Positions 33,979 through 38,293 of a stretch of 64,000 bases of DNA are shown here, piece by piece (within the stretch, counting starts at the first letter, position 1; each line of letters starts with the position of its first letter). The notes beneath the pieces are model-generated. The model was not told the origin of the DNA and did no database searches. It worked only from the letters and a program-made list of their open reading frames with translations. The translations under genes and the position numbers were made by a program. This DNA comes from Diadema antillarum (lineage: Eukaryota), in NCBI RefSeq assembly GCF_040938485.1, contig NW_027271136.1, positions 1 through 64,000 of the forward strand. The letters are read 5' to 3'.

Positions 33979-35328
33979 ATGGAAATTCCGCTTTCCGCTC
34001 CCCCACAGCATACAGCTAAGCCTGTCGTGGGTGGCACCACTAGTACGAGCGCCCTGCATACAGCTAAGTCTGTCGTGGCGATGGTGACTACAGCCGTGCA
34101 TCATGAACCCAAGTGTTCGCCGGCTAGTATTAAGGCTCCAACAAAGAAAGAAGGGAATGGGAAAACCCTTAAAAAACCCACCAAACCGGGCCTAAGTAAG
34201 AAGGCAGCTCCCCCTAAAGAGAAGACGGACGCGGAGGTGCTTTCCCGCCTTTCTAAACTCGAATCCATGTTTGAAAAGGTCATGGAAATACTGCCGTCTC
34301 AGCCTACTCGTATCCAACAACAGCAACTACGTGCCGGCCATGTTGGCACGGCTTGTACCGCAGAAAACCACGGTGGTGTGCCGTTTGGGGGCATGGATGT
34401 GTGTGCTACAGACGATAGTACGCAAGCACGCGGTACGCTGCACGACGACCACGGCGGCAGCAGCTACAGTGGGGATGAATGCGATTTCCCTGCGGCGGCA
34501 GCGGGTTACGCACCCGCAGAGCTCACGGGGCGGCCAGTACAAGTGCCATCCTTTGCTGCAAAATTTGCGGTCTCCGCCTGTGTGGGCGACCCTATCAATG
34601 ACGAATTGGCAAATTCTACGAATTATCTCATCTCCCATTGTCTGGAGGAAAAATCTATGGAAGAGTCAGCGGCAAACTACCCAGCACCGAGCAATTGCCC
34701 CAACTTACTAGTCCCTAAAGTCAATCCAGTGATTTGGGATAATGTGACACAGACTACGCGCAGCAGAGACGTTAAGCTGCAGAGAGTACAGAAATCTCTT
34801 ACCCGCGGGCTGTGTGCGTTCCTACAAACTCTTCCTACTGACTTGAACGAGGCGCAACAGGACGCACTCGCTTTACTCTGTAATGCCAATTACGAGATGA
34901 ATTGCCTGAGAAAGGAGCTGATCAAGCCCGATATGAACGCTGCTTACGCACATCTGTGCAAGCCTACTACGCCCGTGACCGCGTTTCTATTCGGTGATGA
35001 CTTGGGACAACGTGTAAAAGATCTCAAGGAGGAGAATAGGGCTGCCTTTAGTGTGGTTAAAGGCCAGGCTAAGAGATCTACTCATCAGCCGTACCACCCA
35101 TACAAGCGCACGGCCAGCGGTGGATTCAGCCGGAAGCAATATCGGAACGCAGGCTGGCTCGCAGCTGGCGATACATCCAGGCCTTTTTTAGGCCAGCAGC
35201 AGCGGGGATACAGACATTCAGCCCCGCACACGCAGACTCGCCCACCTCCAGCTCATGCGCACAACCGGGGGCAGAGCTACTCGACAGCAACCCCAGCCAA
35301 GCCAAACACTGTGTCACGGAGAAAGTAA
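33979..35328 (+). CDS. DIRS gag-like ORF1 (449 aa)
   Basis: ATG-initiated first ORF of the element. Contains DIRS-gag-like motifs (VPKVNPVIW, D.KLQ.VQK, DALALL..AN, LFGDDL) and a basic R/Q/P-rich C-terminus. Confidence 0.9.
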   Translation: MEIPLSAPPQHTAKPVVGGTTSTSALHTAKSVVAMVTTAVHHEPKCSPASIKAPTKKEGNGKTLKKPTKPGLSKKAAPPKEKTDAEVLSRLSKLESMFEKVMEILPSQPTRIQQQQLRAGHVGTACTAENHGGVPFGGMDVCATDDSTQARGTLHDDHGGSSYSGDECDFPAAAAGYAPAELTGRPVQVPSFAAKFAVSACVGDPINDELANSTNYLISHCLEEKSMEESAANYPAPSNCPNLLVPKVNPVIWDNVTQTTRSRDVKLQRVQKSLTRGLCAFLQTLPTDLNEAQQDALALLCNANYEMNCLRKELIKPDMNAAYAHLCKPTTPVTAFLFGDDLGQRVKDLKEENRAAFSVVKGQAKRSTHQPYHPYKRTASGGFSRKQYRNAGWLAAGDTSRPFLGQQQRGYRHSAPHTQTRPPPAHAHNRGQSYSTATPAKPNTVSRRK

Positions 35329-35459
35329 CTGCACTACCCAAGGAGGTAAGTTGCAGGCCTAGCTCTTGTTGTGGAAATACACAATCTACTCACACTGTAC
35401 AGTCAGTTTTTGACATTGAACATGTAGATGTTCCATTAGACCTGCCCGTTGGGGGTCGA

Positions 35460-37325
35460 TTGAGGCATTTTAGCAAACAGTGGAATCGTATTACCACTGA
35501 TCCTTTCATACTTGATGCAATTAGCGGTTACAAACTTGAATTTCAAGAGGCGTATAGCCCACCTCACAGAGGTAAACCGCCTTACCACTACAGAGTGGGT
35601 AATGCTGAGGAGAGCAAGATTGACATTGAAATTCGAAAACTGGCCGAGAAAGGCGTAATCGAAGAATGCCAGCATGTGGCTGGAGAATTTGTGTCCAATA
35701 TCTTTACACGCCCAAAGAAAAATGGGGACATACGCCTAATTTTAGATTTATCGGACCTCAATGACAGTCTGAATGTACAGCATTTCAAAATGGATAACAT
35801 CCATACGGCTACAACCCTAATTTCCCCTGGTTGTTACCTTGCCTCAATCGACCTTCGAGATGCCTACTACTCTGTCCCTGTTCACCCCTCATATCGCAAG
35901 TATTTGAGATTTGTCTGGCATGAGAAATGTTGGCAATTTAAGGTACTCCCCAATGGCCTTAGTACAGCGCCTAGGCTCTTCACAAAGCTTATGAAGCCGG
36001 TGTTCGCAAAGCTGCGACAGGCAGGCCACCTGGTTGTGGGGTATTTAGATGACACTCTCATAATCGGTGAAACTGAATCACAAGCACTAGAAGCGGTGCA
36101 AGCAACCACAAAACTGCTCTCTGACCTTGGTTTTGTCATTCATTCAGAGAAATCTATCCTAGAGCCTCAGCAACGGCTCCAATTTTTGGGGTTTATCTTG
36201 GATTCGGAAAGCATGACTATAACGCTCCCGCATGAGAAATGTCAAAATATCAGGGCAGTATGTGCGGAATTGCTAGGGAAACAAAACCCTACTATCAGGC
36301 AGGTGGCGCAGGTCATTGGGAAACTGATTGCTACTTTCCCTGCTATTCAATATGGCCCCCTCTTCTATCGTAACCTAGAAAGAGACAAAATTCTTGCACT
36401 AAAATCAAGCAAAGGGCATTTTGATCGACCTATGAATTTGTCTGAAGCTTCTAAACAGGAGTTAATGTGGTGGTTCAATAACATTCACTGCCAGTCGGCA
36501 CCAATTAGTCGAGATCGGCCAGCTTTAGAGCTACGTACTGACGCCAGTGGGCAAGGATGGGGTGCCACTGATTTAAGCAGTGAAACTGGCGGTAGATGGG
36601 ATGATCAGGAGATAGTGCATGCTCTAAACAATGAAATCAACTATCTTGAAATCTTAGCTGCAGGGTTTGGTTTGAAGTCATTTTGCGGCCACCTGCATGA
36701 TACACATGTGCTCATTAGAACTGACAACACAACAGCTGTAGCCTACCTGAACAATATGGGAGGCATTAAATCTCGAGCCTGCGACAGGGCAGCACGAGAC
36801 ATTTGGGTTTGGTGTAAGGAAAGGAATATCTGGATCACAGCAGCCTATTTACCAGGTCGTGACAATACAGAAGCAGACAGGAGATCTCGTCATTTTAATG
36901 ACAGAACAGAATGGATGCTGAATAAGAAAGTTTTTACTGATATCACTAAGAAATGTGGTACTCCCCAAATTGATCTTTTCGCGTCCAGACTCAATAAGCA
37001 GCTGCCTGCGTACGTTACGTGGCTGCCTGACCCAGATGCGGTTTCTGTGGATGCATTCACTCTGAATTGGGGTGATCTGTATTTCTACGCATTCCCTCCT
37101 TTCTGCCTCATCCCCAAATGTCTCCAAAAAATAGAAAACGACAAGGCACATGGTCTCTTGATTGTCCCAAACTGGCCTACGCAAGCGTGGTTTCCTCGCA
37201 TGAGGAGAATGCTTAAAGATGAACCACTCTTAATTCCTAGACACAGGAATTTGATTACGCAACCAGTATCTGGGGAACCGCACCCTTTACACGCTTGCCT
37301 TGATCTGTTATGTTGCAGGTTTTGA
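35460..37325 (+). CDS. DIRS pol ORF: reverse transcriptase, RNase H and methyltransferase-like domain. The frame is open from 35073 and has no ATG until 35790.
   Basis: RT motifs IDLRDAYYSVP, LPNGLSTAPRLF and YLDD (36042-36053). RNase H acidic residues in TDASG, NYLE, TDNTT and ADRRSR. MT-like motifs DLFASRLN and YAFPPF. The TTG at 35460 is only the ORF-caller start; the conserved GGRL..F..W motif begins upstream of it. Confidence 0.96.
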   Translation: MRHFSKQWNRITTDPFILDAISGYKLEFQEAYSPPHRGKPPYHYRVGNAEESKIDIEIRKLAEKGVIEECQHVAGEFVSNIFTRPKKNGDIRLILDLSDLNDSLNVQHFKMDNIHTATTLISPGCYLASIDLRDAYYSVPVHPSYRKYLRFVWHEKCWQFKVLPNGLSTAPRLFTKLMKPVFAKLRQAGHLVVGYLDDTLIIGETESQALEAVQATTKLLSDLGFVIHSEKSILEPQQRLQFLGFILDSESMTITLPHEKCQNIRAVCAELLGKQNPTIRQVAQVIGKLIATFPAIQYGPLFYRNLERDKILALKSSKGHFDRPMNLSEASKQELMWWFNNIHCQSAPISRDRPALELRTDASGQGWGATDLSSETGGRWDDQEIVHALNNEINYLEILAAGFGLKSFCGHLHDTHVLIRTDNTTAVAYLNNMGGIKSRACDRAARDIWVWCKERNIWITAAYLPGRDNTEADRRSRHFNDRTEWMLNKKVFTDITKKCGTPQIDLFASRLNKQLPAYVTWLPDPDAVSVDAFTLNWGDLYFYAFPPFCLIPKCLQKIENDKAHGLLIVPNWPTQAWFPRMRRMLKDEPLLIPRHRNLITQPVSGEPHPLHACLDLLCCRF

Positions 37326-38293
37326 AGCTGCCGTTCGAGAACTCTGGCATGAGCAGCAGAACGGTGGACATCTTGGCAGCATCTTGGAGGGCATCAACCC
37401 AAAGACAATATTGTACATATATAAGGAAATGGAGAAAGTTTTGTACACTTAAGAAGGAAAGTCACCTTCATGCCAAGATTAATTTTGTTTTGGAGTTTTT
37501 TACACACATGTTTTATGAAGAGAACTTGAGCTATTCAGCTATTAACTCAGCACGGAGTGCACTTGCTACCTTTCTAGTGTTAGAGGATGAACAATTTACT
37601 GTCAGCACTCATCCGCTTCTCTCTCGTTTTATGAGAGGTGTGTTCCAGCTCAGGCCCCCAAGGCCGCGGTATTCGGAAATTTGGGACGTGAATATTGTTT
37701 TTAGATATTTGAGAAGTCTAGCTCCCGCTAACTCGCTTAGCTTGAAGCAATTAACGATGAAGCTGTGCATGTTACTGGCCTTGATATCCACCCAGAGGGT
37801 ACAGACTTTGCATTGCCTGAATCTAGACAGCATGATTCTCAAACAATCTATGGTGTCATTCAAAGTTAATGAACATCTTAAGCAGTCTAGACCTGGGAAT
37901 TTTGGATTGGACGTACTTTTGAAAGCGTACCCCCCAGACAGACGTTTGTGTGTAGTTACATACATTAAGGCCTACCTTCGGAGAACCAAAGAGATCCGAG
38001 GAGAGGAAAGTCATCTCTTCATTAGTTTTCGCAAGCCTTTCAAGAGAGTAACGGCACAGACAATTTCTCGATGGATCAAAGAAATCATGACTGGCGCTGG
38101 CATTGACACCACAATGTTCAGTGCACATTCAACCCGAGCAGCATCTAGCTCAGCAGCAAACAGGGCGGATGCACCTATTCCTCTGATCCTCGCAAAAGCA
38201 GGCTGGTCAAAAGAACGAACATTCCGTAAATTCTACGACAAACCTCTACAAGAAGAGGGACAGTGCCTGTCACAACTCATTGTGAGGGAATAA
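37310..38293 (+). CDS. DIRS tyrosine recombinase (YR/integrase), 327 aa
   Basis: N-terminal core-binding region (SWR.ST.RQY, YSAINSARSAL). Catalytic signature R (TQRVQ), K (LKQSRP), HSTR, GW and Y (KFYDKP). Overlaps the pol stop by 16 nt. Confidence 0.96.
   Translation: MLQVLKLPFENSGMSSRTVDILAASWRASTQRQYCTYIRKWRKFCTLKKESHLHAKINFVLEFFTHMFYEENLSYSAINSARSALATFLVLEDEQFTVSTHPLLSRFMRGVFQLRPPRPRYSEIWDVNIVFRYLRSLAPANSLSLKQLTMKLCMLLALISTQRVQTLHCLNLDSMILKQSMVSFKVNEHLKQSRPGNFGLDVLLKAYPPDRRLCVVTYIKAYLRRTKEIRGEESHLFISFRKPFKRVTAQTISRWIKEIMTGAGIDTTMFSAHSTRAASSSAANRADAPIPLILAKAGWSKERTFRKFYDKPLQEEGQCLSQLIVRE

Follow-up and report, generated by a model that had tools for sequence, protein, structure and literature searches.

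A predicted frameshift-then-splice plan for expressing the enzymes of DIRS1-like retrotransposons in Diadema antillarum

How are the enzymes of a DIRS1-like retrotransposon translated when their reading frames lack usable start codons? The portions of the literature available to us give no answer for the pol and tyrosine recombinase (YR) open reading frames (ORFs) of such elements, and the question is raised here by a copy in the genome of Diadema antillarum. The window analysed is a stretch of 64,000 nucleotides (nt), positions 1 to 64,000 of contig NW_027271136.1 (assembly GCF_040938485.1), and all parts of the element are given on its forward strand. The element, a complete copy of 5001 nt, occupies 33728-38728, and other copies align over about the same span. 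It is an intact, recently copied DIRS1-like retrotransposon, ordinary for this known superfamily, and what makes it of interest is its predicted expression plan.

The first ATG of the element opens ORF1, which is gag-like, runs from ATG 33979 to the TAA at 35328 (33979-35328) and encodes 449 amino acids (aa); there is no upstream ATG in the 251-nt leader. ORF2, or pol (35073-37325), is in frame -1 relative to gag and covers reverse transcriptase, RNase H and methyltransferase regions (together RT-RH-MT). Its first ATG, at 35790, is within the RT domain, and pol of the window's family has no usable start codon, which is also the case for YR in several families. The YR frame (37319-38293) encodes 324 aa counted from a predicted splice acceptor. 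A slippery heptamer, T TTT TTA, is found at 35184-35190 in the X XXY YYZ register of the gag frame and is the predicted -1 frameshift site. It leads into a 52-codon linker in the -1 frame (35190-35345), with no ATG, that would be common to the predicted Gag-Pol and Gag-YR proteins. The predicted splice donor, GAG/GTAAGT (35343-35351, with the GT at 35346), is in phase 0 of pol and 17 nt past the gag stop, and the predicted acceptor, a pyrimidine tract followed by TTGCAG/G (37296-37319), would start an exon at 37319 in phase 0 of YR. Together these delimit a predicted GT-AG intron of 1973 nt (35346-37318), whose junction also appears in two NCBI gene models of this family, that would remove RT-RH-MT. 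The original prediction, which derived Gag, Gag-Pol and Gag-YR from this one locus by frameshifting plus alternative splicing, gave coordinates and phases for gag, slip site, donor and acceptor that were all correct on recomputation. Gag does end before the donor, as it had stated, and the products that it put at 449, about 1,115 and about 780 aa were recomputed as 449, 1115 and 780 aa.

Most ribosomes would thus stop at the end of gag and yield Gag of 449 aa, and a minority would slip by -1 at T TTT TTA and read the linker. Slipped ribosomes on unspliced RNA would continue into RT-RH-MT to give Gag-Pol of 1115 aa (404+711), and those on RNA without 35346-37318 would continue into YR to give Gag-YR of 780 aa (404+52+324). 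Judging from the sequence comparisons below, we hold with strong confidence that slippage occurs at the heptamer and with good confidence that the predicted donor and acceptor are spliced. Given both, the Gag-YR fusion is likely to be the main source of YR, and the plan as a whole, in which unspliced RNA yields Gag-Pol by the -1 frameshift and spliced RNA yields Gag-linker-YR by the same slip, is probably correct. Because the donor follows the gag stop, spliced and unspliced RNA would both encode full-length Gag. Junction-triggered decay follows a 50-55 nt rule; the predicted junction falls 5-41 nt after the stop, so the spliced RNA would likely escape it. No protease domain was detected in a Pfam scan of the element, so Gag fusions may persist, and the enzymes could co-assemble through Gag; the co-packaging at low stoichiometry put forward in the original prediction would follow from this.

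The predicted intron has the features expected of the U2 type, namely GT-AG ends, a consensus donor and a pyrimidine-rich acceptor. The donor ranks first of the 201 GT sites in the element and the acceptor third of the 303 AG sites, on rough scores, that for the acceptor being ad hoc. The T6A run, the donor GT and the acceptor AG are identical in 28/28 near-identical copies examined. None of the three signals is therefore an assembly error, and these copies are too young to show more than that.

For more divergent comparisons, 49 stretches of the host genome were taken and one mostly intact copy was counted per family, the window's copy being the ninth. Across the nine families Gag proteins are 30-48 % identical and YR proteins 45-64 %, and four-fold sites are ~0.3 identical, which is near saturation. 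Copies outside the family counts include L061, L069, L097, L098 and L121 (truncated or decayed), L092, which has no heptamer, and L073, which has no acceptor AG; the last two have broken ORFs. A further 17 loci came from metagenomes; the gag end is intact in five of them, and the search for acceptors covered 11. Scans of viral contigs gave no matches. A random phase relationship in homologues would have counted against the original prediction, and the opposite was found, with matching phases for all three signals in 9/9 diverged families. The wider family survey that it had called for points the same way: most of the informative distant elements agree, many of them with the acceptor in another position and its phase kept.

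The heptamer T TTT TTA is in the gag register in all nine families, 96-144 nt before the gag stop, and upstream gag contains four in-frame canonical heptamers in 3706 codons. In three of the nine families the pol frame opens just one or two codons before it. All five intact metagenome gag ends contain an in-register canonical heptamer (A AAA AAC in three, G GGT TTT in two); codon shuffling gives a probability of 0.14-0.28 for each and ~3e-4 jointly. A G follows the heptamer in 9/9 host families, and TTTTTTAG might be read as a splice acceptor and not a slip site, with pol and YR both spliced from a donor inside gag. It does rank first of 321 as an acceptor in L064, and the NCBI models reach the pol frame via an intron in gag. 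However, in the remaining eight families it ranks 8-86 as an acceptor, the phase-2 gag donor that would be required scores at most 1.4 bits versus 3.1-7.9 for the post-stop donor, and the distant heptamers A AAA AAC and G GGT TTT have no AG. Moreover, the two NCBI models differ in their donor and cut conserved Gag. We regard this explanation as very unlikely.

The post-stop donor is also present in all nine families, with the GT 6-42 nt after the gag stop and in pol phase 0. No other of the ~200 GT sites scores better in eight of the families, and in the ninth the donor ranks third; it sits in linker sequence that cannot be aligned. The linkers comprise 34-52 codons and no Met or ATG. At the YR start, an acceptor YAG/G was found in 9/9 families, ranking 1-6 of ~320 AG sites by the ad hoc rough score, and the predicted introns are 1909-2030 nt long. 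Among the metagenome elements, four of the five with an intact gag end have a phase-0 donor of rank 1-2 within 33 nt of the gag stop.

YR could also be reached from pol, with no splicing, if ribosomes slipped by -1 a second time where the two frames briefly overlap. Frameshifting into YR was proposed for Ngaro elements by Poulter and Butler 2015, as quoted in the part of PMC13003380 available to us, and a -1 YR frame, a slight overlap (22-112 nt between pol and YR here, in all nine families) and an appeal to recoding are common to both. In the present elements, by contrast, slippage is predicted at gag/pol and pol is flanked by predicted splice sites, and an in-register canonical heptamer was found in none of the nine pol/YR overlaps. 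A second frameshift would also leave the top-ranked post-stop donor and the invariant CAG/G unexplained, and we consider it distinctly unlikely.

The acceptor is not always in the same place. In six of the 11 metagenome elements, from five families, the FPPF-S motif 213-216 nt before the usual start of YR carries an acceptor in phase 0, and in those six the YR frame is open from the upstream acceptor or from up to 30 nt before it. The same upstream stretch holds 3-9 stops in the nine host families. Of the evidence for the predicted splice, inheritance accounts least well for this shift of the acceptor to another position in the same phase. It was also observed that the conserved pyrimidine-rich methyltransferase motif FPPF-S doubles as the predicted acceptor in L102, L106, L107, L110, L111 and L112; most of the host families have FPPF-C at this motif and use the downstream acceptor.

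Conservation at the level of codons bears on whether the signals are more than encoded peptide. Of 334 invariant amino-acid columns, eight are encoded by a single codon throughout, and six of those eight belong to the slip site (pol Phe-Phe and Gag Phe-Leu) and the acceptor (pol Arg AGG and YR Gln CAG). The pol columns come from eight families; L074, whose frame is broken and whose linker contains a stop, was excluded. The motifs could in principle be by-products of conserved peptides, Gag PFLG and Pol LCCR, with YR made from its own short transcript. Constraints in two overlapping frames do restrict codon choice, and an octocoral Gag (P0178) also ends in PFLGQ. However, other invariant residues keep one codon in only 2/328, the donor is in unconserved sequence, and the heptamer sequence and acceptor position vary while the register stays. 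Of the explanations considered, this is the least probable.

Several observations weigh against the frameshift-then-splice plan. The nine families form one clade in a quick tree, and part of the donor's phase is owed to inheritance, since a coding linker tolerates only indels in multiples of three. In L106, a copy with a broken pol, the best donor is in phase 2, and five of the 11 metagenome elements have no clear upstream acceptor (three are frame-broken; L103 and L105 are unclear). No conserved stimulatory hairpin was found downstream of the heptamer, the best hairpins having a mean z of ~0 over the nine families. The possible 6-bp hairpin at 35202-35227 in the window is a weak candidate stimulator not supported by the family comparison; a strong downstream hairpin was seen only in L107, those elsewhere being weak and unconserved (the folding covered simple hairpins). 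ATG 37349, which precedes the SAM-like domain, could give free YR in the window's family, and four further families have a YR Met at residue 2 or 19. The NCBI models are automated predictions and change frame via differing upstream introns in gag. A pattern search for an intronless genomic copy of the window's family returned none, versus 37 unspliced copies, and one for family L076 also returned none, with no positive control, although DIRS-1 RT can act in trans (PMC7192593). The counts for these two families rest on pattern searches instead of DNA searches straddling the donor, as the latter scored the best 40 of 41, 71, 49 and 46 candidates and were biased against half matches. No 35345-37319 joint was seen in six sequencing runs, a result that weighs neither for nor against splicing: four runs are of unspecified kind and low depth, a deep one behaves like DNA, and a presumed RNA run gave 6 short records, none of them spanning the donor or the acceptor.

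The start codons in YR suggest a further alternative, in which Gag-Pol is made by frameshifting and the splice is real, with YR released as a free protein by re-initiation or a downstream start on the spliced RNA. There, ATG 37349 would be ~50 nt past the gag stop, and the first YR Met after the acceptor is at residue 2, 11, 19, 19 or 19 in five of the nine families. In the other four it is at 64, 105, 150 and 152, so that a YR started at ATG would lose part or all of the SAM-like domain. The position of the Met is thus unconserved, and matching phases at two different acceptors would serve no purpose if YR were free. Re-initiation after a 449-codon ORF is also generally poor. We consider free YR unlikely. 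The original prediction is supported by the comparison of families and is probably the right explanation, with free YR from ATG 37349 a candidate product in the window's own family. Another ATG, at 37310, is two codons before the acceptor, inside the predicted intron; it is GTG in 2/28 copies and seems to arise incidentally from the Leu-Cys-Cys codons of Pol.

The NCBI models do contain the junction predicted for the Gag-YR RNA. XP_071483612.1 and XP_071502116.1 read ...ALPKE/VLKLP..., exactly as predicted, and brittle-star models read ...FFREQ...PAE/IVRR, where the unspliced sequence would read PAE/VDC. A search across the brittle-star junction matched NCBI models only. All that such models establish is that a gene finder takes the sites for real ones. 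YR proteins of 357-410 aa were considered as spliced linker-YR products and rejected, as they are mostly extensions into the pol overlap.

Whether the plan extends to animal DIRS1-like retrotransposons generally is a closer call, and we lean slightly towards it. That broader reading, taken jointly, has one slip site feeding two mutually exclusive Gag-enzyme fusions (RT-RH-MT or YR), a splice acceptor that moved in evolution with its phase kept, and long pol/YR overlaps in which the YR frame is held open from an upstream acceptor. If the frameshift-then-splice plan is correct, a -1 frameshift upstream of an alternative splice would allow one recoding event to yield either of two Gag-tethered enzymes. 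The plan would likewise account for pol/YR overlaps that vary among DIRS elements and for the odd Gag-YR models of annotators.

The closest parallel to the heptamer is the gag-pol frameshift of human immunodeficiency virus 1 (HIV-1), where, in the passages available from PMC4373837, U UUU UUA is followed by G and the enzymes are minor Gag fusions, as predicted here. The DIRS element differs from HIV-1 in that neither a conserved stem-loop nor a protease domain was detected, and in that its donor follows the gag stop as well as the slip site, so that even after splicing the frameshift would be needed for the enzyme. Retroviral subgenomic splicing uses one donor and a downstream acceptor to skip pol, as predicted here, but retroviral env is translated from a start of its own and the integrase belongs to Pol, unlike the predicted YR. 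In plant Ty1/Copia elements a conserved splice governs how much structural protein is made relative to catalytic protein, according to the part available of Oberlin et al. 2017 (PMC5580714); there the splice gives a Gag-only RNA from one ORF, whereas the DIRS splice would swap the enzyme behind a frameshift.

For DIRS1-like elements, Piednoel et al. 2011 (PMC3266345) give no expression mechanism in the text available, where the strings 'splic', 'intron' and 'translat' are absent and frameshifts appear only as damage. Neither a splice nor a gag-pol frameshift is described for these elements in that text or in the available passages of PMC6681497, PMC7192593, PMC13003380, PMC9210276, PMC4157794, PMC9341512, PMC8547959 and PMC5009743. 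The plan was not found in the accessible open literature, a scope that excludes the two main DIRS reviews (Poulter and Goodwin 2005; Poulter and Butler 2015), which may already mention part of it.

The assignment to DIRS1-like elements rests on the following anatomy. The left inverted terminal repeat (ITR) at 33728-33793 is complementary to 38392-38431 and 38619-38671, and repeat analysis placed the right ITR with its extension at 38619-38728. The internal complementary region (ICR) at 38392-38507 is 100 % complementary to both termini and consists of a left part (38392-38431) and a right part (38428-38507) that overlap at 38428-38431, the circular junction. The pairings are 33728-33767 with 38392-38431, 38428-38507 with 38649-38728, and 33741-33793 with 38619-38671. 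The terminal repeats are inverted and no long direct repeat was found in the element, hence none of the split direct repeats that are a hallmark of Ngaro/PAT. Copies start with (T)ATT and end with ATT between unrelated flanks, which fits NTT termini without a target-site duplication, and a joint 33728-38727 in run X5 resembles an empty site. The gag, RT-RH-MT and YR ORFs, the ITRs, the two overlapping ICRs and the ATT-type ends match the DIRS1-like elements described in the part of PMC3266345 available to us, as does the short pol/YR overlap, seen in half of its 28 elements.

ORF1 has no Pfam match above the cut-off and is kept at 30-48 % identity among the nine families; it is assigned as putative gag by position. 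In pol, the RT (35715-36200) matches Pfam RVT_1 (E 1.6e-22) and has YLDD and TDAS motifs, and the RNase H-like region (~36525-36746) has a weak match to RT_RNaseH below the cut-off (E 0.032). The methyltransferase-like region (~36897-37208) gives Dam (E 0.084) and PCIF1_WW (E 0.0019) matches, both below the cut-off, a weak signal at the expected place after RNase H, and contains DLFAS and FPPF motifs. YR matches Phage_integrase (1e-8) and, below the cut-off, a SAM-like N-domain (3.7e-5); it has HSTR at 270 and the C-terminal Tyr motif, and two NCBI D. antillarum proteins are 98-100 % identical to it.

At least 28 near-identical copies are present in the host genome; among the first 28 matches, 24 cover the whole element with 98-100 % identity, and all three frames are intact in several copies. 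The genome contains at least nine DIRS1-like families, several with dozens of copies that are 98-100 % identical, which suggests recent activity. Two copies of the family of L078 are arranged tail to tail, inverted, ~1.8 kb apart. L061 is internally deleted, with both termini kept, no gag and the left ITR joined to pol, and a joint 33791-37718 in run X5 represents an internally deleted derivative with the left ITR joined into YR. Internally deleted derivatives with both termini are possibly non-autonomous copies.

Just upstream of the element, between microsatellites, a 113-bp inverted repeat (91 %) at 32992-33228 resembles a miniature DNA transposon, and palindromes of this kind also lie next to copies in L062, L064 and L088. 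At 28798-29041 and 29626-29831, direct and inverted repeats of 30-64 nt lie in clusters and are probably remnants of another small repeat element.

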